NCBI GenBank assembly: GCA_964472625.1
Contig: CAYYLM010000005.1
Span: forward strand, 15,576 to 79,575
Direction of reading: 5' to 3'
DNA from: an uncultured Dehalococcoidales bacterium
GTDB lineage: Bacteria; Chloroflexota; Dehalococcoidia; Dehalococcoidales; UBA5760
Length of the DNA stretch: 64,000 nucleotides
Shown here piece by piece: positions 13,853 to 38,874 of this stretch. The first letter of the stretch is position 1; each line of letters opens with the position of its first letter. The translations under genes were made by a program, and so were the position numbers. The notes below the pieces were generated by a model, which saw nothing but the letters and a program-made list of their open reading frames with translations, was not told where the DNA came from and did not search any database.

Positions 13853-14962
13853 CTACTTACCAACACAGGAGGGACAGATATCAGCTAGGCAGCAGTCAGG
13901 GCACAGGGGGTGGCGGCGGCAGACATTCTTAGCCAGACAGACGAGCAGGGCATGGTATTCGTTAAACAGCCCAGCATCAGCGGGTAGACTATCCATAAAG
14001 AGGGATTGACAAGCAACGTAACTCATGCCCTGCGGCGCTAGACCGAGCCGGCTTAAGATACGACGGGTGTAGGCATCGATGACGAAGACTGGCTTACCGA
14101 CAGCATACAGCAGTATAGAATCGGCGGTCTCCGCTCCGATACCGTGAATAGAAAGCAGTTGTGCACGCAGGGTGGCTGTATCACTAGCGAAGAGCTGATT
14201 AAGGTCGTCATTACAGACTTCCCCCAGCCACTGGGCCAGGGACTTGAGTTTTACCGCCTTGGCGTTGTAGTAACCACAGGGACGAATAAGGGTAGCTAGT
14301 TCGGCAAGGGGCAGCCGGCGCAACACCCCCGGTGACAGCGCCCCGGCTGCCTTGAGACTGGCTATCGCCCTCTCCACATTACCCCAGGCCGCCGACTGAG
14401 AAAGGATGGCACCAACCATCACCTCAAAGGGTCCCTCAGCCGGCCACCAGTGCTGTGGGCCGTAACCATCCATAAGCCGGCGGTAAATCTCCTTTAGCCA
14501 CTGGCTTATCTGATGCAATTGGTTTACCCAGGGTGGCACTTTGGCTCTAGCTACCGAATCACCCATCGGGATGTAGGGCTTGATGTCAAGCACCGGTGTG
14601 CCGCTAATAGCATCCAGCCCCTCAACCTTCAGGATATTCCCCCGGCGCTCAAGGAGCCTGACGGTGGTTTCTCCGATGGGGTTAGGTCTCTGCGGCGAGC
14701 GGCTGGCAAAAAGCCCCACCAGCGGTAGCTCAACTTTGCCCCTAGGGTGCACTTTGAGTGGCACCTCTCCCGACGTCTTATGCATCCAGAAAAGAACTTT
14801 GACATGAGAGAACTCTTCCAGACCATCTAAAGCCTCAGCAAGGCGACGGTCGATCACAATTTCAGAAATAACCCTTTCCCAACTTTGATGTCGAGGCTCT
14901 CCAATTTCATTTCTGACAGTACCAATAGCCTTAAGAGTCATCCTTGGTTGCTTAATAGCCAC
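13853..14962 (-). CDS. Fusion protein: N-terminal TrmO/TsaA-like (YaeB) domain + C-terminal endonuclease-III-related HhH-GPD domain with Fe-S loop
   Basis: The N-terminal half has EFSHVKVLFWMH...GLFASRSPQRPNPIG...GTPVLDIKPYIP (TrmO). The C-terminal half has WWPAEGPFEVMVGAILSQSAAWGNVERA...HGIGAETADSILLYA (EndoIII-related) and ends CRRHPLCPDCCLADIC. An alternative start is the ATG at 14941. Confidence 0.75.
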   Translation of the reverse strand: MAIKQPRMTLKAIGTVRNEIGEPRHQSWERVISEIVIDRRLAEALDGLEEFSHVKVLFWMHKTSGEVPLKVHPRGKVELPLVGLFASRSPQRPNPIGETTVRLLERRGNILKVEGLDAISGTPVLDIKPYIPMGDSVARAKVPPWVNQLHQISQWLKEIYRRLMDGYGPQHWWPAEGPFEVMVGAILSQSAAWGNVERAIASLKAAGALSPGVLRRLPLAELATLIRPCGYYNAKAVKLKSLAQWLGEVCNDDLNQLFASDTATLRAQLLSIHGIGAETADSILLYAVGKPVFVIDAYTRRILSRLGLAPQGMSYVACQSLFMDSLPADAGLFNEYHALLVCLAKNVCRRHPLCPDCCLADICPSCVGK

Positions 14963-15123
14963 CGTCCCACCCTCAGCTTAAAACGATAAACAGCACCTCA
15001 ATAATAGATTTTAAACTGACTTCGGTCAAGAGCAAACCACCAAGGCTCTTATAAAAACTCAGAGAAAAGCGAAAAAGACAAAGGAAATTAGTTAAATCTA
15101 GGGTGTCTTTGAGCCGCTGCGAT

Positions 15124-15714
15124 TCAGACTAACGCCTTACCCTTGCCAGCAGCACCCAATTTCTCCAGACCGTAGCGATAGCCCTGCTCAAATGCCTTCA
15201 TATTCAACTCTTCAGTCCCCTTGGGCACCGCAGCTAAAAGCGACTCCTTCATTGACTCCACGGTTACCAGACTGGTGACCGCGGTGAGAAATCCCAGCAT
15301 CACCACGTTGGCCACCGCCACCCTGCCCAGCCCCTCCGCGATGCGCCGGGCGGGTATACTCAGCAGCCGCTGGCTAGTTGGCAATGGCTTGACCAGGTCT
15401 TCATCAATAACTACCAGGGTATCATCACGGTTATGAGGGTGATACTTGTCATACCCCCGCTGCGACATGGCTACCAAAACTGAAGGCGCGGTAATGTAGG
15501 GATAGGTCACCAGCTTATCAGAAATAACCAAATCAGCCCGGCAGGCACCACCTCTAGCTTCCGGGCCATAATCCCGAGCAAAAGTTGCCTGCTTATGCTC
15601 AAAGATAGCTACCGCCTGACCGACAATATAGCCCGCCAGGATGATACCCTGCCCCCCATAACCACAGAGTCTCAGCTCCTCTCGCTCAGCCATACCTCTA
15701 CCCTCGATCAACAA
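15124..15714 (-). CDS. 2-oxoacid:ferredoxin oxidoreductase, gamma subunit
   Basis: 196 aa. The subunit order delta-alpha-beta-gamma fits 2-oxoglutarate-type enzymes, but substrate specificity is not provable from sequence. GYGGQGIILAG...YGPEARGG is the gamma-subunit motif. Confidence 0.8.
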   Translation of the reverse strand: MLIEGRGMAEREELRLCGYGGQGIILAGYIVGQAVAIFEHKQATFARDYGPEARGGACRADLVISDKLVTYPYITAPSVLVAMSQRGYDKYHPHNRDDTLVVIDEDLVKPLPTSQRLLSIPARRIAEGLGRVAVANVVMLGFLTAVTSLVTVESMKESLLAAVPKGTEELNMKAFEQGYRYGLEKLGAAGKGKALV

Positions 15715-16480
15715 ATTTCCCCACGATTATCTGCCCGTTAAACTCAATAGCCACCTGTTTAGGGTCAATTCCAGACTTAATAACACTGTTATCACGGTAA
15801 TACTTCATCTGGTCCAGCCCGGTTACCTGCTTATTCATCCGGCCGTAATAGGTTGGGCAGGGACTGATTATCTCCACTAGGCTGAAGCCCTTCTTGAGGA
15901 GCGCCTCAGTGACCGCCTTCTCCAGCCGACGAACATGTGCTGTCGTCCAGCGGGCGACATAGGCAGCACCGCTGGCGGCTGCCAAATACGGGACATTCAA
16001 CGGCTCGTCAACATTACCCCTCAACGAGGTGGTGGTTCGGGCCGTTAGCGGTGTCGTCGGACCCAGCTGCCCCCCGGTCATCCCATAGATAAAGTTATTG
16101 ACGCATAATACCGTCAGGTCGATACTGCGGCGGGCAGCGTGGATAAGGTGATTCCCCCCGATTGCCACTAGGTCGCCATCGCCACTTATTACCACGACCG
16201 TTAGCTCCGGATTAGCTACCTTAAGACCGGTGGCGAAGGGGATAGCCCGCCCGTGAGTGGTATGGAAAGAATCCAGATTGATGTAACCAGCCACCCTGCC
16301 GGTACAGCCTATCCCTGAGACGACGACTACCTTATCTAAATCAAGCCGGGACTTAACTAGCGTCCTGAGAAAGCAGTTAACCACCAAGCCCAAGCCGCAA
16401 CCAGGACACCAGATGTGCGGCACCCGTTCCACTCTCAGGTAATCATCTAGAGGATGCTTTTTTAAACCGACTTCACCCAC
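15698..16480 (-). CDS. 2-oxoacid:ferredoxin oxidoreductase, beta (TPP-binding) subunit
   Basis: 260 aa with WCPGCG, SGIGCTGR, GDGDLVAIGGNH (TPP motif) and NNFIYGMTGGQ. The start is a GTG immediately after a TAA that closes the upstream repeat-encoded frame. Confidence 0.9.
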   Translation of the reverse strand: MGEVGLKKHPLDDYLRVERVPHIWCPGCGLGLVVNCFLRTLVKSRLDLDKVVVVSGIGCTGRVAGYINLDSFHTTHGRAIPFATGLKVANPELTVVVISGDGDLVAIGGNHLIHAARRSIDLTVLCVNNFIYGMTGGQLGPTTPLTARTTTSLRGNVDEPLNVPYLAAASGAAYVARWTTAHVRRLEKAVTEALLKKGFSLVEIISPCPTYYGRMNKQVTGLDQMKYYRDNSVIKSGIDPKQVAIEFNGQIIVGKFVDRG

Positions 16481-16640
16481 TTAATAGCTACTTCCCCCGT
16501 TTGAACTGACTTCGCTCACTCGATAGCTACTTCCCCCGTTTGAACTGACTTCGCTCACTCGATAGCTACTTCCCCCGTTTGAACTGACTTCGCTCACTCG
16601 ATAGCTACTTCACCCTTTTTGAACTGACTTCGCCCATGTG
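16464..16640. repeat. Tandem array with 39-bp period (3 near-identical units + 1 diverged 40-bp unit + the native korB-like start region)
   Basis: Units start at 16484, 16523, 16562 and 16601 on the plus strand (ATAGCTACTTCCCCCGTTTGAACTGACTTCGCTCACTCG). Units 1-3 differ only in the last 2-3 nt. A fifth related copy (16464-16483 region) overlaps the first codons of the beta-subunit gene. Confidence 0.95.
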
Positions 16641-16670
16641 ACAACCTTTGCCATTTTAGATTGTCTTCCT

Positions 16671-17822
16671 CTATCTAACCGCCCGCCTTATTGCTGCCAA
16701 GATGGTCTCGGGAGCATGCACCCCTCCCCCCATATGAGGCACCAAAACTACCTCCGCCCGGCCACAAGCGCACCGCTCTACCTCCAGAGCAATCTGTCCG
16801 TAGTTAATCTCAGGCACGACAAACGCCTTAACCTCACGGGCAATATCCCTGATCCGGTCATCGGGGAAGGGCCAGACGGTGACCAGCCTCAGCATGCCAA
16901 CCCTGATTCCCTCACCCCTGGCCCGCTCGACAGCAATTTGGGAGACCCGGGCTGAAATTCCATAAGTACAGACAACTACCTCAGCACCCCGTATGCCGTC
17001 CTCTTCAAGCTCAATAATTTCGGCCTTATTCTGCTCAATCTTGTCGACCAGCCGCCTCACCAGCCTGTCCTGCGCCTCAGCGGTCATCGCCGGATAACCC
17101 CGCTCATCATGTGTTAGCCCGCTAACATGCAGATGGTAGCCCTCACCAGCGTTAGCCATCGGCGGCACTAAATCAGGGTCAGGCTCGAAGGGCAGATAGT
17201 CGCTGGTAGGCACGGTGGGCTTACGCCGAGGTACAAGTTCTATCTCACCAGGCGACGGGATGACCACCTTCTCATACATGTGCCCGGTAGCCGCTTCGGA
17301 CATAACCAGAACCGGCAGGCGATATTTTTCAGAAAGGTTAAAGGCCTTTATCGTCAGGTCATACAGCTCCTGGGGAGAGCTGGGTGATAGGGCAATGATA
17401 CTGTATACCCCGTGACTACCCCAGCGTGCCTGCATCATGTCCCCCTGACCAGTCAGGGTTGGTAGTCCAGTTGACGGTCCCGCCCGCTGGATGTTCACCA
17501 CGACACATGGGGTCTCGGTCATGATGCCCAAACCGATGTTTTCCATCATCAGGCTAAAGCCTGGCCCAGAGGTAGCCGTCATCGCCTTAACCCCACCCCA
17601 CGAAGCCCCCAGCACCGCCGCCATTGACCCCAGTTCGTCCTCCATCTGGATATAATTACCCCCAACTTCAGGGAGTCGCTCCGCCATCCGCTCCGCAATC
17701 TCGGTAGCCGGTGTGATGGGATAGCCGGCAAAGAAGCGACAACCAGCGCTTATCGCCCCCTCAGCACAGGCATCGTCTCCGCCCAGAAAAAACTCACCAG
17801 CCAGATATTTTCGCTCTGACAC
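16671..17822 (-). CDS. 2-oxoacid:ferredoxin oxidoreductase, alpha subunit
   Basis: 383 aa with FAGYPITPATEI, MEDELGSMAAVLGASWGGVKAMTATSGPGFSLM. Confidence 0.9.
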   Translation of the reverse strand: MSERKYLAGEFFLGGDDACAEGAISAGCRFFAGYPITPATEIAERMAERLPEVGGNYIQMEDELGSMAAVLGASWGGVKAMTATSGPGFSLMMENIGLGIMTETPCVVVNIQRAGPSTGLPTLTGQGDMMQARWGSHGVYSIIALSPSSPQELYDLTIKAFNLSEKYRLPVLVMSEAATGHMYEKVVIPSPGEIELVPRRKPTVPTSDYLPFEPDPDLVPPMANAGEGYHLHVSGLTHDERGYPAMTAEAQDRLVRRLVDKIEQNKAEIIELEEDGIRGAEVVVCTYGISARVSQIAVERARGEGIRVGMLRLVTVWPFPDDRIRDIAREVKAFVVPEINYGQIALEVERCACGRAEVVLVPHMGGGVHAPETILAAIRRAVR

Positions 17823-17831
17823 TTTAAACTC

Positions 17832-18071
17832 CTAGCCTTGGCAAGGACTCTTGGCAGTATCAACCACACCGATGGCAAAGTCAGGACAGACCATCCCGCA
17901 GATATCACACTTGGTACATTTTGAGTTATCACTGATATAGACCGGATGGTACCCCTGGCTATTAATCTCCGTCGATTCAAAGAGAATGTGCTTTGGGCAA
18001 AACTCAATACAGAAGCCACACCCCTTACACCGCTCCGGTATGATAATTACCTCTTTAGTCTCTGGCTTCAT
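17832..18071 (-). CDS. 2-oxoacid:ferredoxin oxidoreductase, delta (2x[4Fe-4S] ferredoxin) subunit
   Basis: Motifs are CKGCGFCIEFCP and CTKCDICGMVCP. The ORF is open to 18125, but the ATG at 18071 follows AAGGGGCAAAGGTGAT. Confidence 0.8.
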   Translation of the reverse strand: MKPETKEVIIIPERCKGCGFCIEFCPKHILFESTEINSQGYHPVYISDNSKCTKCDICGMVCPDFAIGVVDTAKSPCQG

Positions 18072-18241
18072 ATCACCTTTGCCCCTTACTTTCCACAGAA
18101 CATTCCGTGAGGATTTGACAACCACGGCACAATGATAAGAAATCTTAGCATACGCTTACCCCCATCGACAAATCCGGGCTTGGCTTGCTTCTCACCACCG
18201 ATGGAAAATATGCTACAATAGGCTTAATCCTGGAGTGGGAA

Positions 18242-21719: not shown

Positions 21720-24244
<2,525 letters not shown>

Positions 24245-26473: not shown

Positions 26474-27814
26474 CTACTTCAGGTGGATTTGCTGACGGAT
26501 GTCCGAGATTTTCCGCCTTAGGTGGGGATTAAGACCACTTTCGTTGGTTATCTTTTCACAGGCGTGTCGGACGGTTGACGGGTTGCGGTTGCCGAACTCC
26601 TGACCAATTTGGGCTAGGGGAGCACCGGTTTGCTCGCGGATGAGGTACATGGCTAGCTGCCTTGCTAAAGCAATCTCCTTGTCTCGTTTCAGGCCCATTA
26701 AGTCAGCCGGGGCTAGCTGGAAGCTTTTAGCTACTGTCTCAATCACTAGTGCCGAAGGCGTGGGTGCCTTATCTGGGGATTTGGTGGCGATACTCTCCAG
26801 CGCTTTGGCGGCTAGCTCTGGGGTGGCCCTAGCTCTGAGCAGCTTGGCGTAAGCAATAACCCGGTTGAGGTTACCCTCCAGTTCGCGTATGTTTTGCTGT
26901 ATCTGCCGGGCGATTAACTCTAGGCAGTCTTGGGGTACATCCTCCCCTCGCTGCCTAGCCTTAAGTTGAAGAATGGCGAGGCGTGTTTCCAGGTCAGGTG
27001 GCTGAATGTCAGCGATTAATCCCCACTCAAAGCGGGAGCGCAGTCTCTCAGCAAGCCGGGGGATTGATTTTGGCGGGCGGTCACTGGTGACAATGATCTG
27101 GTGGTTTTGATTGTGGAGCTCGTTAAAGGTGTGGAAGAGGCACTCCTCGGTCTGCTCTTTGCCGCTTATGAAGTGGATATCGTCGATCATCAGCACCTCG
27201 AGGCTCCGATATCGATTACGGAATTCCTCGGTTTGTCTCTCTTGGATAGCCGTGATGAACTCATTGGTAAACTGCTCACAGCTGACGTAGCGAACCTTGA
27301 GGGAGCTATCTAGGGCTTTATGACCAATGGCGTGCAAGAGATGGGTCTTGCCTAAGCCGACACCACCGTAGATAAACAGCGGATTGTAGGCGTGTCCCGG
27401 GCTCGAGGCTACTCCTAGGGCGGCGGCATAAGCCAAGCGGTTTCCGCTACCTTCGATGAAGGAATCAAAGGTGTATCTCGGGTTGAACATCGGTGAGCCT
27501 GCTTTCTGAGCATATGAAACCTCGCTTAGGCTGCCGGGTTCACCTCTCGGGGATTGATCCTGTGTCTCCACCTTGAAGATGACATGGGTATCACGCTGGG
27601 TAAGCCCGATGAGCGTCTTCTCAATTAGGGAGCGCTGGTTTCGGTCTAGGTATTCTGCCACGAAGGTATTGGGCACGCCGATAGTAAACTGGTTATCTTG
27701 GTAGCTTAGGCCGAGCGTTTTTTCCAGCCAGGTCTGGTAGTTATGCTTAGAGACTTGGATTTGTAGCTCCCCCAGAGCGGTTTCCCAGATTCTTTGTGCT
27801 GACTCAGCTTCCAT
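26474..27814 (-). CDS. dnaA: Chromosomal replication initiator DnaA
   Basis: The N-terminus is MEAESAQRIWETALGELQ. The AAA+ core has NPLFIYGGVGLGKTHLLHAIG, MIDDIHF and VTSDRPP. The C-terminal DNA-binding helix has NRNPSTVRHACEKI. The ORF is open to 27847. Confidence 0.95.
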   Translation of the reverse strand: MEAESAQRIWETALGELQIQVSKHNYQTWLEKTLGLSYQDNQFTIGVPNTFVAEYLDRNQRSLIEKTLIGLTQRDTHVIFKVETQDQSPRGEPGSLSEVSYAQKAGSPMFNPRYTFDSFIEGSGNRLAYAAALGVASSPGHAYNPLFIYGGVGLGKTHLLHAIGHKALDSSLKVRYVSCEQFTNEFITAIQERQTEEFRNRYRSLEVLMIDDIHFISGKEQTEECLFHTFNELHNQNHQIIVTSDRPPKSIPRLAERLRSRFEWGLIADIQPPDLETRLAILQLKARQRGEDVPQDCLELIARQIQQNIRELEGNLNRVIAYAKLLRARATPELAAKALESIATKSPDKAPTPSALVIETVAKSFQLAPADLMGLKRDKEIALARQLAMYLIREQTGAPLAQIGQEFGNRNPSTVRHACEKITNESGLNPHLRRKISDIRQQIHLK

Positions 27815-28025
27815 CACATTACCTTTGTTCTTCCCCGCGAGATCCAAGCTTCTATATTCCTCGGTTAGTGGTCAAGGTTTGACTTTAATTACCAGTTACC
27901 TAGTAGCCGCCAAAGAGTGGAAGCTAGAATGGGAACGTTATAATGATAGCAAGCTTCTTTGATGGGGAGGCAACAGTTTCAGCACTGGTTTTGGGATATT
28001 CTCGGGTGCTATTTTCCGTTAAGAG

Positions 28026-28071
28026 GTCTTGAAAACTGGCTTATTTGCCCGATATTAAGCTTTTAGGTTTG
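28026..28071 (+). repeat. 46-bp direct repeat, copy A (promoter-like TTGAAA-N18-TATTAA inside)
   Basis: GTCTTGAAAACTGGCTTATTTGCCCGATATTAAGCTTTTAGGTTTG matches copy B at 41 of 46 positions with a 228-bp offset. Confidence 0.9.
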
Positions 28072-28253
28072 GATTAGCCATTTGGTGGGGAGGTTATCTG
28101 CCCTTGGTATTTAGCTATGGGAGGCTTAATGAGTGCTTTAGGCGACGGATAGCCTTGAAGTTGCCTGGCTAAATACGGGGCGATTTTTGTAAGGTGGCAA
28201 GGTTCTTCAAAGCGGTTTTGGGGCATTTACGGACCCCCTTTTAAGCTTAAAAT

Positions 28254-28299
28254 GTCCTGAAAACTGGCTTATTCGCCCAATATCAAGCTTTTAGCTTTG
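28254..28299 (+). repeat. 46-bp direct repeat, copy B (CTGAAA-N18-TATCAA inside)
   Basis: GTCCTGAAAACTGGCTTATTCGCCCAATATCAAGCTTTTAGCTTTG. It lies about 65 nt upstream of the fmt start. Confidence 0.9.
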
Positions 28300-28340
28300 A
28301 GGTAATCGGGGGTTTACTGGGAATTTCTTTTGGTGTTAAG

Positions 28341-28362
28341 ATTGAGCCGTAGGAGGCTCAAT
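28341..28362 (+). promoter_or_regulatory. Perfect 8-bp hairpin enclosing the fmt Shine-Dalgarno
   Basis: ATTGAGCC-GTAGGA-GGCTCAAT. The AGGAGG at 28351-28356 lies half in the loop and half in the 3' arm. The hairpin ends one nt before the TTG start at 28363. Confidence 0.5.
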
Positions 28363-29310
28363 TTGCGCCTAGTTTTTATGGGTAGCCCAGAATTTGCTGT
28401 GCTGCCTCTGGAGTACCTAGTTCGTAACCACTGGCACGTCGTGGCCGTTTACACCCAGCCTGACCATCCGGCGGGTAGGGGGCGTGCTCTTTTACCCTCT
28501 CCCGTGAAAAGGAAAGCGGCGGCATGGAAATTACCCGTGGTGCAGCCCGCCAGTCTTAAAAGGCCAGAGGCAGTGGTGGAGCTAGAGAGCTTTCACCCGG
28601 ATGTTATCGTGGTAGCTGCCTTTGGCCAGATTCTGCCTCATTCGGTTTTGGCTATCCCCCGCTACGGGTGTCTCAATATTCACCCCTCCCTACTACCCAG
28701 GTCTCGGGGTGCCTCACCGGTAGCGGCCGCGATTTTAGCCGGGGATGAATTTACCGGAGTCAGCATCATGCTGATGGACGAGGGCTTGGATACCGGCCCC
28801 GTCTTAGCCCAGGCGCAGATTCCTATTGCCGGAATGGATACTAGCGGCACGCTTGCGTCTAAACTCTCGCGAATAGGGGCTCAATTACTGCTTGAGGTGC
28901 TGCCCCGCTGGCTAGGAGGGGAGCTTACCCCGCGCCCTCAGGATGAAGCTTTAGCCAGCTACTACCGCCCGATTTCTAAGGAGGCGGGCGAGATTGATTG
29001 GCAACTAGCGGCAACTAGTATCTGGCGGCGGGTGCGAGCCTATAGTCCCTGGCCCGGGTGTTATACCAGCTGGCAGGGTAAGCGACTGAAGATTATTGAG
29101 GCGGTGCCTCTCCCTGGCGAAGAGGGGGTTCGGGTAGGGCAGGTGGTGGCGCTTGCTGGTGGGGAAGCAGCCCCGGCATTCGGTGTCACTACCGGGGAGG
29201 GAATTTTAGGTGTGCTTAAGCTTCAGCTAGCGGGGAAGCGGGTGACGGGAGCCGCTGACTTTTTGCGGGGACAGAGAGGCTTTGTCGGCGCGCAGCTAGG
29301 TTTGAGTTGA
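28363..29310 (+). CDS. fmt: Methionyl-tRNA formyltransferase
   Basis: A TTG start lies 6 nt after AGGAGG and gives MRLVFMGSPEFAV, the canonical Fmt N-terminus. Also present are QPDHPAGRG, LNIHPSLLPRSRGASP, and a C-terminal domain. The ORF is open from 28330. Confidence 0.93.
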   Translation: MRLVFMGSPEFAVLPLEYLVRNHWHVVAVYTQPDHPAGRGRALLPSPVKRKAAAWKLPVVQPASLKRPEAVVELESFHPDVIVVAAFGQILPHSVLAIPRYGCLNIHPSLLPRSRGASPVAAAILAGDEFTGVSIMLMDEGLDTGPVLAQAQIPIAGMDTSGTLASKLSRIGAQLLLEVLPRWLGGELTPRPQDEALASYYRPISKEAGEIDWQLAATSIWRRVRAYSPWPGCYTSWQGKRLKIIEAVPLPGEEGVRVGQVVALAGGEAAPAFGVTTGEGILGVLKLQLAGKRVTGAADFLRGQRGFVGAQLGLS

Positions 29311-36163: not shown

Positions 36164-36853
36164 ATGAAGCTAGTTTTTATCCCTGGAGCCGCTTGTGGTA
36201 AGAGGGCGTGGCTGTGTCAGGCCCTATATTTTGCTGATTCGGAAGTGATTGCCCTGCCTGGTCATCCTGAAGGTAAGCCCTGCTCCAGCGTTGATGGTTA
36301 CGTGGCGTGGCTGCGGGGCTACCTTGAGGAGCAGTCGCATCAGGATGTCGTTCTAGCCGGTCATTCTATGGGGGGTGCTGTGGTTCAGCAGTACGGGCTG
36401 AAGCATGGCGATGGGATAAAGGCTTTGGTTTTAATTGGCACCGGAGCTAGACTCAGGATTCACCCTGACCTGCTTGAGGCAATTAGGGGTATGATCGATA
36501 GTAAGCGGGCATGGCGGGAGTATTTGGAAGAGCGTCATCGTAACGCAGTGCCTGAAGTTAGGCGGACCATAATTGAAGAGCGGCTGCGCATTGGGCCGGC
36601 GGTGATGCTGAACGACCTGCTCGCCTGTGATAAGTTTGACATGCTGGCGGAGGTCCATAATATCAAGCTGCCGACGCTGGTTATCGGTGGCAGTGAAGAC
36701 GACCTGACACCCGTAAAATATGCGCACTATCTAACGAGCCAGATTAAGGGAGCCCGTGAGGTTATCGTTCCCGGGGCAGCTCACTGGGTGCTCACCGAGA
36801 AACCGAAAGAGGTTAATCAGGCGATAGAGCGCTTTCTTGCCGAGCTTGCCTGA
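36164..36853 (+). CDS. Alpha/beta-fold hydrolase
   Basis: 229 aa with the nucleophile elbow GHSMGG and a C-terminal His (GAAHW) typical of the fold. Confidence 0.7.
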   Translation: MKLVFIPGAACGKRAWLCQALYFADSEVIALPGHPEGKPCSSVDGYVAWLRGYLEEQSHQDVVLAGHSMGGAVVQQYGLKHGDGIKALVLIGTGARLRIHPDLLEAIRGMIDSKRAWREYLEERHRNAVPEVRRTIIEERLRIGPAVMLNDLLACDKFDMLAEVHNIKLPTLVIGGSEDDLTPVKYAHYLTSQIKGAREVIVPGAAHWVLTEKPKEVNQAIERFLAELA

Positions 36854-38681
36854 GTGCAGCGTGTTTCTGCCGGCAGGCTGGATGACGGCGCTGGAGACCA
36901 CAGGCACTGCAGTCCCGATAACGGCAATCTGGGGTTTCCTGGTTTTTGAGGGCGTTTTTAAATTCTCGCTTGAGGAAGGCTTGGGTTACTCCAATATCTA
37001 TGTGAGCCCAGGGTAACGGCTCGTCCAGGGATAGTTCCCGCTGGGCATAGAAACTAGGTTCAAGTCCGGTCTCCTGGAAGGCACGGAGCCAGTTTTCGTA
37101 ATTAAAGTGCTCGCTCCAGCCGTCGAAGGTGTTACCCAGTTGCCAGGCGTGATGGATAACCCTGCCTAACCGGCGGTCGCCTCGTGACATAGCGGCTTCA
37201 AGCTGGCTTACCTTTGGGTCGTTCCAGGATAGCCTGACCTCCTTACGGCGCAGCCTCTGTTTCAGAAGCTCAATCTTGGCGTTTAGCTGCTCTTCGCTTT
37301 CCTGAGTCACCCACTGAAAGGGGGTGTGCGGTTTGGGCACGAAGGTGGACAGGCTGACCCTTATCTGGGGTCTCCGGCCCCTGGTTCTTTTCCCTAGGGA
37401 GCTGATTTTGTCTATCAGGTCGGCTATTGCCTCAATATCGTCCCTAGTCTCGTTAGGCAGGCCAAGCATAAAGTAGAGCTTGAGAGCGTTCCAGCCACGG
37501 CTGAAGGCTTCGGCAGCGGTTCCCAGGATGGTATCCTCGGAGGTGTTCTTGTTGATTGCTTGCCTGAGTCGCTGGCTACCGGCCTCAGGGGCAAAGGTGA
37601 GCCCGGTTCTTTTGTGGGTGGCTAGAGAGTCGAGTAATCTAAGCGATAGGTTATCAATCCGCAGACTGGGCAGTGACAGGATGAGATTCTGGTCTTGATA
37701 GCGTTGGAACAGGCTGGCTACCAGCTCGTCAAGGTGGGGGTAGTCGCTGGTGCTTAAGGAAACCAGGGAGAATTCGTTATAGCCACAGTTAGCAATAAGC
37801 TCACCGACTGCCCTGAGCACCTCCTCTGGGGAGCGTTCCCGCACCGGACGGTATATGTTTCCCGCCTGGCAGAAGCGGCAGCCGCGGCTACAGCCCCGCT
37901 GAATCTCAACGGCTCCCCGGTCGTGGGTAATCTCGATATAGGGGACAACCGGTCTGGTGGGTGGTGGTGGTAACTCGTTTACTAGCTGCCTTTCAATACG
38001 GGGTCTAGCCTCGGTTACAGTGGGGGTGATGCTTTGGAAAAGACCGCTGGCCTCGTAGGCTACCTGGTAGAGACTGGGTACGTAGATACCGGCTACCTGC
38101 GCCAGCCGGCGCAAGCGCTCTTCTCTAGGGGCCATCTCCTTTTTCCAGTCCCGGAGGGAGCTAAGTAGCTCAAGGACAGCCTCTTCGCCGTCCCCGATTA
38201 CGAAGCCGTCAATGAAGTCTGCCATCGGCTCGGGGTTTAGGGCGCAGCTACCACCGGCGATGACCAGGGGGTGGGAGACACTTCTTTCTGAGGCGAGCAG
38301 TGGAATCCGGGCGAGGTCGAGCATATTGAGCACGTTGGTATAGGTGAGTTCGTAGCCCAGGGAAAAGCCGATGATGTCGAAATCCTGCAAGGGGTGCTTG
38401 GATTCCAAGCTGAAGAGCGGAATACCGCTACTGCGGAGTTGGGCAGCCATATCGGGCCAGGGAGCAAAGGCCCTTTCCGCTAGTACATCCGGCTGGCTAT
38501 TGAGTAGCTCGTAGAGGATGTGTATCGCCAGGGTGGACATCCCGAGCTCGTACAGGTCCGGGTAGGAGAGGACAATCCGGAGCGGGGTCTTGTCCCAGTC
38601 TTTGGTGACGCTGTTCCACTCGCCGCCGGTATAGCGGGCGGGCTTAATCACTTGGCTCAAAACATTATCGAGCTCGGTCAA
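36813..38681 (-). CDS. B12-binding-domain radical SAM protein
   Basis: 622 aa. It has an N-terminal B12-binding-like domain (FDIIGFSLGYELTY) and a radical SAM site (EIQRGCSRGCRFCQAG). The TTG start follows AGGAG. The 3' end overlaps the convergent hydrolase gene by 41 nt. Confidence 0.85.
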   Translation of the reverse strand: MTELDNVLSQVIKPARYTGGEWNSVTKDWDKTPLRIVLSYPDLYELGMSTLAIHILYELLNSQPDVLAERAFAPWPDMAAQLRSSGIPLFSLESKHPLQDFDIIGFSLGYELTYTNVLNMLDLARIPLLASERSVSHPLVIAGGSCALNPEPMADFIDGFVIGDGEEAVLELLSSLRDWKKEMAPREERLRRLAQVAGIYVPSLYQVAYEASGLFQSITPTVTEARPRIERQLVNELPPPPTRPVVPYIEITHDRGAVEIQRGCSRGCRFCQAGNIYRPVRERSPEEVLRAVGELIANCGYNEFSLVSLSTSDYPHLDELVASLFQRYQDQNLILSLPSLRIDNLSLRLLDSLATHKRTGLTFAPEAGSQRLRQAINKNTSEDTILGTAAEAFSRGWNALKLYFMLGLPNETRDDIEAIADLIDKISSLGKRTRGRRPQIRVSLSTFVPKPHTPFQWVTQESEEQLNAKIELLKQRLRRKEVRLSWNDPKVSQLEAAMSRGDRRLGRVIHHAWQLGNTFDGWSEHFNYENWLRAFQETGLEPSFYAQRELSLDEPLPWAHIDIGVTQAFLKREFKNALKNQETPDCRYRDCSACGLQRRHPACRQKHAALRQARQESALSPD

Positions 38682-38710: not shown

Positions 38711-38810
38711 GTAGTCAGTTCCAAAAACTTGCCGAAGTATGCTGCCTCATGAAGTCAGCCCAAAGACTTATTGAAGTATGCTACCTCATGAAGTCAGTTT
38801 AAAAACTCTG
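38711..38810 (+). repeat. Second 39/40-bp-period tandem repeat (2 full + 1 partial unit), related to the 16.5-kb array but in opposite orientation relative to flanking genes
   Basis: Units begin at 38711 (GTAGTCAGTTCCAAAAACTTGCCGAAGTATGCTGCCTCAT), 38751 (GAAGTCAGCCCAAAGACTTATTGAAGTATGCTACCTCAT) and 38790 (GAAGTCAGTTTAAAAACTCTG...). Confidence 0.85.
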
Positions 38811-38874
38811 ATGGCTAATTATAGTTTAAGATGGGGAAGTAATCCAGCCTCGCGCTCAGTATCGGTTAGTTCCC

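Follow-up and report, generated by a model that had tools for sequence, protein, structure and literature searches.

We analysed a 64-kb stretch of DNA (64,000 nt, hereafter the window), assigned by its best genome matches to an uncultured Dehalococcoidales bacterium. The minus strand of the window carries an operon for a 2-oxoacid:ferredoxin oxidoreductase, in which Pfam recognised the delta (Fer4), alpha (POR_N/PFOR_II), beta (TPP_enzyme_C) and gamma (POR) subunits. As assembled, the gap between the alpha gene korA and the beta gene korB holds a 39-bp tandem repeat, which we call the korB array (Table 1). The korB start was placed at its GTG because the N-termini of the relatives align from there and a TAA directly upstream excludes a longer open reading frame (ORF). 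The gamma reading frame with the Pfam POR domain spans 15124-15714, and the start of korG was taken as 15693. We infer that the array units are transcribed within the kor operon mRNA, since a promoter scan of the korA-korB gap predicted neither a promoter nor a terminator.

Table 1. Features of the kor operon, of the korB array and of the two other window loci that carry its core (uORF, upstream open reading frame; PWM, position weight matrix; TPP, thiamine pyrophosphate)
Feature	Position	Strand	Basis and remarks
Delta subunit gene, Fer4	17832-18125	-	Pfam
korA, alpha subunit	16671-17822	-	Pfam POR_N 1.2e-70, PFOR_II 1e-20; stop TAG 16673-16671
Old degenerate core-like unit GAAGACAATCTAAAA	16654-16668	-	Fuzzy and PWM scans; L205 alignment
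39-bp minisatellite (korB array)	16461-16637	-	Tandem Repeats Finder, repeat search, unit table
Short ORF 1, 10 codons, distal 40-nt unit, MGEVSSKRVK*	16605-16637	-	Sequence and ORF derivation
uORF 2, GTG start, 38 codons	16481-16597	-	ORF list, re-derived
korB, beta TPP-binding subunit	15698-16480	-	Pfam TPP_enzyme_C 1.1e-33; start GTG 16480
korG, gamma subunit	15124-15693	-	Pfam POR 2.4e-31; 189-aa gene call in L081
Site C, sigma-70-like promoter TTGACC-17 nt-TATTAT	15001-15029	-	Promoter scan 10/12; core GAAGTCAGTTTAAAA in the spacer (15009-15023)
Array B, period 40/39, cores at 38711, 38751, 38790	38711-38807	+	Tandem Repeats Finder period 39, 2.4 copies, 78% matches

Tandem Repeats Finder reported the korB array at 16461-16633, with a period of 39, 4.4 copies, 93% matches, 0% indels and a score of 281, and a second repeat search put it in the identical register. 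Every unit combines a GTG, codons resembling the KorB N-terminus and a Shine-Dalgarno-like run, GGGGGAAG, which stands 10 nt upstream of each GTG. Units 2 (16597-16559) and 3 (16558-16520) are identical, GTGAGCGAAGTCAGTTCAAACGGGGGAAGTAGCTATCGA, which implies a recent duplication. The sole change in unit 1 (16519-16481) is ATCGA to ATTAA. It produces a TAA that adjoins the korB GTG (TAAGTG), and korB itself opens with GTG GGT GAA GTC GGT TTA AAA. The distal unit reads ATG GGC GAA GTC from 16637 and has one extra base, which makes a 40-nt step. The units share a 15-nt core, GAAGTCAGTTTAAAA, starting at 16631, 16591, 16552, 16513 and 16474 (spacings 40, 39, 39 and 39), and the last of these cores is codons 3-7 of korB. 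Private substitutions in the distal and the proximal unit anchor the array, and between the distal unit and the korA stop sits an old degenerate unit with a counterpart in the related genome L205.

The array encodes a chain of ORFs. Short ORF 1 starts 33 nt past the korA stop, uORF 2 follows after 7 nt, and korB follows uORF 2 at a spacing of 0 nt and in the same frame. uORF 2 encodes (VSEVSSNGGSSYR)x3 with the TAA stop in place of the final Arg codon, and it has its own Shine-Dalgarno-like run (GGGTGAAG/GGGGGAAG). The Shine-Dalgarno duplex energies in the chain range from -6.9 to -8.6 kcal/mol. Paired with a generic anti-Shine-Dalgarno sequence, GGGGGAAG reached -8.6 kcal/mol. By this crude measure, which ignores spacing, 52 long ORFs of the window had a median of -7.0 and random windows one of -3.2. 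The unit structure, the starts, the Shine-Dalgarno spacing, the uORF, the TAAGTG junction and the distal MGEVSSKRVK* had all been described in the initial annotation, and we confirmed every detail in the minus-strand sequence.

A tandem repeat with two identical internal units might have been mis-assembled or over-expanded from a true genome with one unit, since its copy number can be checked from reads alone. Exact look-ups of the window KorA and KorB proteins gave matches solely on Logan short-read contigs, from SRR14802573 and SRR14802574, and both of these independent assemblies break inside the array: the KorB contigs start at GAAGTCAGTTCAAACGGGGGAAGTAGCTATTAAGTGGGT and the KorA contigs end with ...GCTATCGAGTGAGCGAAGTCAGTT. 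These breaks fit a genuine repeat longer than the assembler k-mer, although they do not give the unit number. However, the contig ends hold the distal-to-internal and the internal-to-proximal junction, which require at least one internal unit. In addition, the unique anchors are about 120 nt apart and can be spanned by one short read, and diverged arrays are present at the orthologous site in independent projects (L136, L198 and L208). We therefore regard an assembly artefact as extremely improbable. An exact look-up of the 38-aa uORF product, as a sign of the full array in another assembly, found no record. The array also explains why short-read assemblies break at the kor operon.

The related loci (L numbers) differ at the korA-korB junction. 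In L002 and L003, whose KorB is 66% identical to that of the window, the two genes overlap by ATGA. L001 (KorB 90% identical) has a 35-nt gap and the KorB N-terminus MQKSEVSLKS, while L206/L207 (88%) have a 37-nt gap and the N-terminus MSQVSLEK; elsewhere in the clade the N-termini are MSEVSLK, MSKVTLE and MAKCEDGLK. In the array-less relatives the KorB N-terminus reads M(Q/S)(K)SEVSLK, which means that the repeated codons E-V-S-(L/S)-K are native korB codons. The genome closest to the window, L205 (GCA_975956745.1; KorB 94% identical), carries one extra unit, CAC ATG AGC GAA GTC AGT TCA AAA GGG GGA AGT AGC TAT TAA/GTG GGT GAA CTC. It forms a 12-codon uORF with the same TAA/GTG junction as in the window and holds the unframeshifted version of the distal short ORF, with the product MSEVSSKGGSSY*. 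Aligned with L205, the window shows one clean insertion of 117 nt (3x39).

Longer arrays are found in three further loci. L136 and L198 (KorB 90% identical to the window) have 3 and 4 cores, respectively, with a period of 39. At the nucleotide level their contigs are 97.6-98.4% identical, and the arrays are set apart by one clean 39-nt unit, which is additional in L198. The units of this pair end with an in-frame TAG and are mostly without starts, and 33 nt separate the last stop from the korB start. L208 (KorB 88%) has at least three perfect 40-nt units, a period that is not divisible by 3, and its contig begins within the array. In shuffle tests the L208 unit was recognisably of the window type (the comparison with the window array was significant), whereas the non-core part of the L136/L198 units, GACTTYGGCAGGCAGGCTCTAG, showed no similarity to the window unit. 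The array-bearing lineages (window/L205, L208 and L136/L198) are about 85-90% identical in protein. As a side observation, the korA end in L002/L003 (5970-5980), GAAGAAGTCCGATGACAAAAAC, faintly resembles the later repeat core; the ATGA overlap there corresponds to a spacing of -4.

We consider it likely that the array is a bacterial minisatellite, that is a variable-number tandem repeat (VNTR), which arose from tandem duplication of the korB translation-initiation region, with the chain of short ORFs as a tolerated or compensating by-product. The presumed ancestral state in the order is either the ATGA overlap, with korA and korB translationally coupled, or a gap measuring about 35 nt. The comparison shows that a 39-nt segment, from korB codon 2 back through the start codon and the Shine-Dalgarno region, was duplicated in one Dehalococcoidales clade. 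This moved the old start upstream, and the new GTG became the working korB start. The unit boundary (...TAA GTG / AGC GAA...) is as expected if the duplicated 39 nt began at codon 2 of the upstream ORF and ended with the start codon of korB, and the start of short ORF 1 is the displaced start of the ancestral korB type. The window lineage subsequently gained three further units.

As the aligned contigs show, the array gains and loses whole 39-nt units between close relatives, presumably through slipped-strand mispairing (replication slippage) or unequal recombination. From these comparisons we conclude that the junction has been an array of period 39-40 since before window/L205, L208 and L136/L198 split, that its units have turned over and that its copy number is still changing. 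The window carries a recent expansion on top of this old array. The initial annotation had already read the repeat as an amplification of the korB initiation region, and the single unit in L205, the clean 117-nt insertion in the window and the native codons of the array-less relatives bear this out. Its proposal that the copy number varies was verified in the related genomes by the one-unit difference between L136 and L198 (98% identical). The word recent, which it used for the whole event, suits the last expansions and not the array itself, because lineages with a protein identity of about 85-90% have the period of 39-40 in common. The junction is a phylogenetically resolved case of an initiation region turning into a minisatellite inside the operon of a heteromeric enzyme, from the ATGA overlap through a 35-nt gap and one duplicated unit to five.

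Bacterial VNTRs consist of head-to-tail units of 10-100 bp, gain and lose whole units by slipped-strand mispairing and contain identical recent copies beside diverged older ones. The korB array behaves in the same way: its units follow each other head to tail and without spacers, their number changes by whole units between close relatives, and recent identical copies stand beside diverged ones. Most described VNTRs are locus-specific, whereas here three loci have a common 15-nt core and a similar period (see below). Contingency loci, on the other hand, switch genes on and off through changes of frame or promoter spacing by units of 1-9 nt. The korB array resembles them in that slippage lengthens or shortens a repeat tract at the 5' end of a gene. 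Still, we rejected a phase-variable contingency locus, because the 39-nt units preserve the frame, every copy number leaves the proximal Shine-Dalgarno sequence and GTG as they are, and all variants have an intact korB. To call the array contingency-locus-like, as had been proposed, was an overstatement, since korB is not switched on or off by 39-nt steps.

The arrangement is closest to that of the mycobacterial interspersed repetitive unit (MIRU) type of VNTR (Supply et al. 1997, as summarised in PMC3184786 and PMC12548453). Such repeats are cotranscribed with the flanking genes, couple the stop of a short ORF to a downstream start, vary in copy number between strains and occupy several related loci. 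The korB array matches them in position and orientation, with cotranscription only inferred, and the TAA/GTG junction of the window and L205 is likewise an internal ORF stop abutting the downstream start. Array B, described below, is inverted relative to its gene. MIRUs are situated at start codons and contain a coupled internal ORF (PMC12548453; PMC3184786). They differ, however, in several respects. A Mycobacterium genome has 40-50 MIRU loci, compared with three core loci in our 64-kb window; their stop/start spacing is -4 and that of the korB array 0 nt; the korB array shows no sign of mobility or of 4-nt direct repeats; and its units demonstrably copy the initiation region of their own gene. 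For a Chloroflexota host we assume no sequence relationship. By this analogy, the korB array would work like a MIRU-type VNTR but stand outside that family.

Other repeat classes agreed less well. Repetitive extragenic palindromes, bacterial interspersed mosaic elements and miniature inverted-repeat transposable elements (MITEs) were rejected because the repeat search found no inverted repeat in or around the array. An RNA fold of the array region exceeded shuffles in stability by a modest margin (z = -2.4), with weak 5-bp hairpins only and no conserved hairpin found. A CRISPR array was rejected because the units are contiguous and have no spacers. The BrickBuilt MITE of Porphyromonas gingivalis is built of 23-nt units with leader and tail modules and inverted-repeat ends and is present in 19 copies per genome (PMC4596501). 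It shares with our repeats the spacer-less tandem minisatellite, the multiple intergenic loci and promoter-like segments, but the 23-nt units, the leader and tail modules, the inverted-repeat ends and the 19 copies were not found here. Rfam searches returned only two tRNAs in the whole window at the gathering score and nothing relevant at E<=1 in 14900-16800 or on 11 related loci. A full-text search of one paper library on intergenic tandem repeats of Dehalococcoidia found no account of such repeats.

Each unit copies an initiation region, and the korA-korB mRNA would therefore carry decoy starts. Termination-reinitiation couples genes best when their spacing is between -4 and +3 nt, and most of the coupling disappears beyond about 30-40 nt (PMC12548453). 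The gap of 190 nt between korA and korB would thus abolish direct coupling, and a relay of short ORFs could restore the delivery of ribosomes, which would probably reach korB by termination-reinitiation across the gap. In this the array resembles known uORF coupling: a short ORF that has a Shine-Dalgarno sequence of its own stops within -4 to +3 nt of the korB start downstream (TAAGTG) and could deliver ribosomes (PMC12548453). Such coupling is putative at korB, where the lineage-specific arrangement seems to be a by-product of duplicating an initiation region. Short relay ORFs may keep a downstream subunit translated while its initiation region becomes a minisatellite.

It had also been proposed that the stacked Shine-Dalgarno sequences and starts, together with the terminating uORF, tune the alpha:beta stoichiometry, so that copy number would be a selected control of KorB translation. 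The Shine-Dalgarno-like runs and starts are credible, the TAA/GTG junction is common to the window (38 codons) and L205 (12 codons), and copy number differs between close relatives. Furthermore, KorA and KorB form a heteromer and are ATGA-coupled in more distant relatives. A tuning role is plausible, with support confined to the window and L205. Yet the architecture is not conserved. L136/L198, with their in-frame TAG, mostly without starts and with 33 nt to korB, and L208, with its period of 40, have no TAA/GTG junction with a uORF, and a plain gap of 35-37 nt suffices in other relatives. Array B behaves alike in the opposite orientation, where the uORF logic cannot apply. We find a selected tuner rather unlikely and, because the architecture is lineage-specific, we see in the relay a consequence of the expansion, tolerated or compensating, and not a dedicated or conserved regulator.

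The initial annotation overlooked that the 15-nt core of the korB array occurs at two other loci in the window, one of which is a second array of period 39/40. With up to two mismatches, a 14-mer of the core had 9 matches in the window compared with 0.23 expected. A PWM scan of the 64-kb window detected no fourth core locus, and the other matches scoring at least 9 were at background level. In the information profile of 24 aligned sites, the 15-nt core forms a sharp conservation peak over weak flanks. A pattern scan of metagenomes gave 120 loci. Three of them were relevant (L136, L149 and L198), and the rest were unrelated repeats containing GAAGTCAGTT by chance.

The first of the two loci, site C, is a single core in the spacer of a promoter 45 nt upstream of a trmO/HhH-GPD gene (13853-14962). 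Both hexamers are kept in L136, L198, L205 and L206, while the spacer drifts, to GGAGTTAGTTTAAAA in L136/L198 and to GAAGTCTTTACAAAA in L205. L001 is without site C, and the intergenic region concerned is about 100 nt longer in the window. The second locus, array B, precedes a TIGR03960-type radical SAM gene (36813-38681, minus) by 30-125 nt, on its upstream side, and is inverted relative to it. Its orthologues also vary in the number of cores: one in L212 (94%), two in L213 (period 38), three in the window, three diverged in L211, four in L149 (period 37) and one diverged in L209/L210. Internal array-B cores drift to AGTCAGCCCAAAG and AGTCAGTTAAAAG. On the strand of the radical SAM gene, the units resemble the gene's own initiation region (RGAGTTTTTAAACTGAC vs GGAGTTTTTAATTGACC). 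We rejected the idea that the arrays are tandem promoters, since good hexamers are present at site C only and the internal units have none. Upstream of the trmO promoter of L205 (1560-1700), we noticed by eye two further modules of about 38-40 nt, CTTGNCC-GAAGT...TATAAGAGC, which Tandem Repeats Finder did not flag. If they are real, site C is duplication-prone too.

The three loci surround a probable chromosomal replication origin. Its sign is a reversal of the GC skew at about 27-28 kb, adjoining dnaA (26474-27847, minus), and we would place the origin in 26474-28400. To its left, at 11-13 kb, are the korB array and site C, and to its right, at about 11 kb, is array B. The korB array belongs to a small family with periods of 37-40 bp in gene 5' regions around the replication origin and with the common core GAAGTCAGTTTAAAA.

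How the same core came to these loci could be explained by a small dispersed repeat, MIRU- or MITE-like, that targeted initiation regions in either orientation and then expanded by slippage, with korB as one of many insertion sites. The nine core matches at three loci in 64 kb, two of them arrays of period 37-40, agree with such an element, and so do the likeness of the array-B units to the radical SAM initiation region, the lack of site C in L001 with its intergenic region shorter by about 100 nt and the reported insertion of MIRUs at start codons. Site C and the array-B units of L149 share, besides the core, the non-core ATTGAGGTGCTG (p<0.0005 in a shuffle test). On the contrary, beyond the core the units of the korB array and array B were not significantly similar (shuffle test, p about 0.5), and we dropped a likeness seen by eye outside the core (GAAGTA-GCT) after this result. 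The same three loci alone are occupied in the window, L136/L198, L149, L205, L206/L209 and L211-L213, and about 64+42+22 kb contained no new site. We found neither terminal inverted repeats nor target-site duplications nor a stable hairpin, no transposase is nearby, and there was no match to Rfam or to a known family. The core at korB is native coding sequence in the array-less relatives. Hence, a mobile repeat family seems unlikely to us, and duplication in place at korB remains our preferred reading.

Alternatively, the core could be the site of a DNA-binding protein, such as a repressor or an origin-proximal organising or partition factor, and the arrays would be selected clusters of sites spaced by about 39 bp, acting at korB as a roadblock or by titration. 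The core is conserved far above its flanks across loci and lineages, the unit length is kept at 37-40 bp while the non-core sequence is replaced, and site C sits exactly in a promoter spacer, the classic operator position. The three loci flank the skew switch at 11-13 kb with the core on the leading strand each time. A search of the window for parS with up to 3 mismatches found none, and E. coli-type DnaA boxes formed no cluster near the skew switch; a parS-type centromere was rejected. Besides, the same double variant of the core, GGAGTTAG, occurs at site C of L136/L198 and in the terminal array-B unit of L149.

Several observations speak against such clusters. The site C spacer of L205 has diverged (GAAGTCTTTACAAAA) despite intact hexamers, the internal array-B cores drift, and about one third of positions differ among the three sites of L206/L209, the genome without arrays. 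Copy number runs from 1 to 5 with no preferred number, and a leading-strand position at three of three loci arises by chance one time in four. The motif is asymmetric, 39 bp is a non-integral number of helical turns, and we have no candidate binding protein. We consequently hold arrays of binding sites to be quite unlikely. The broader idea that the core is a functional, strand-oriented recognition element has a similarly slim chance; this would be the site of an origin-proximal protein (operator, partition-like or fork-related) or the multi-copy seed of an antisense RNA from array B complementary to the korB initiation region. Pairing between an antisense RNA of array B and the korB start was rejected as such, because the complementarity present in the window is not kept in the array-less L206/L209.

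Several points weigh against the origin that we favour for the korB array. The exact number of identical internal copies in the window is provisional, as taken from the assembly. Local slippage alone does not account for an identical 15-mer both in the spacer of the trmO promoter and, 22 kb away, in array B. The core has stayed constant while the non-core parts of the window and L198 units are dissimilar at the same locus. Finally, L136/L198 and L208 have a different uORF relay or none, which makes its functional relevance uncertain. In our assessment the korB array is a genuine feature of an ordinary kind, and the shared core is its loose end: a small, well-defined puzzle at three origin-flanking loci. 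The lower likeness of the sites in L206/L209 hints at homogenisation between loci in the array-bearing lineages. Whatever the origin of the core, the korB array and array B are natural strain markers for uncultured Dehalococcoidales populations.

We made some further observations on the core loci. The double substitution of GAAGTCAG to GGAGTTAG is found at site C of L136 (4153-4167) and L198 (2679-2693) and in the terminal array-B unit of L149 (5737-5751), and in the window the same two loci carry the identical 15-mer GAAGTCAGTTTAAAA. The appearance of GGAGTTAG at two loci could reflect gene conversion or co-selection between them, in contigs of one or more non-window lineages. Beside the terminal array-B unit, an intergenic block of about 60 nt, GATGGCTAATTATAGTTTAAGATGGGGAAGTAATCCAGCC, is nearly invariant in six lineages (window 38805-38860; L149 5750-5800; L209, L211, L212 and L213). 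It has -10-like boxes on both strands (TATAGT on the plus and TATAAT on the minus strand) and is probably the promoter region of the radical SAM gene. In that case, array B would be transcribed as antisense copies of the core in the 5' untranslated region of this gene.

The dnaA-upstream intergenic region contains a pair of 53-nt direct repeats (28019-28071 and 28247-28299, 87% identical), and a related 21-mer is present at 22981. The trmO/HhH-GPD gene (minus strand), which follows the kor operon, encodes a fusion of TrmO_N and HhH-GPD with 363-369 aa in the window, L205 and L206, while in L001 (3979-5072) and L136 (4214-5319) an ORF of about 145-150 aa overlaps one of 223 aa. The difference is due to a lineage-specific fusion or split, or else to a frameshift. 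The 419-aa KorB homologue P0002 from the Joint Genome Institute was rejected as a repeat-extended protein, as it consists of two KorB-like halves fused. These TPP-binding halves stand in tandem on a 1.4-kb contig, are unrelated to the array and may stem from a chimeric assembly or a gene fusion. Lastly, six metagenomic loci (L097, L108, L165, L184, L187 and L199) hold apparently unrelated tandem repeats with periods of 39-43 bp, mostly 39-40. Each unit contains a hairpin, CGAAGTCAGTTTTGC-TTCG-GCAAAACT, with no Rfam match, and the arrays end directly at an AGGAGGT Shine-Dalgarno sequence.

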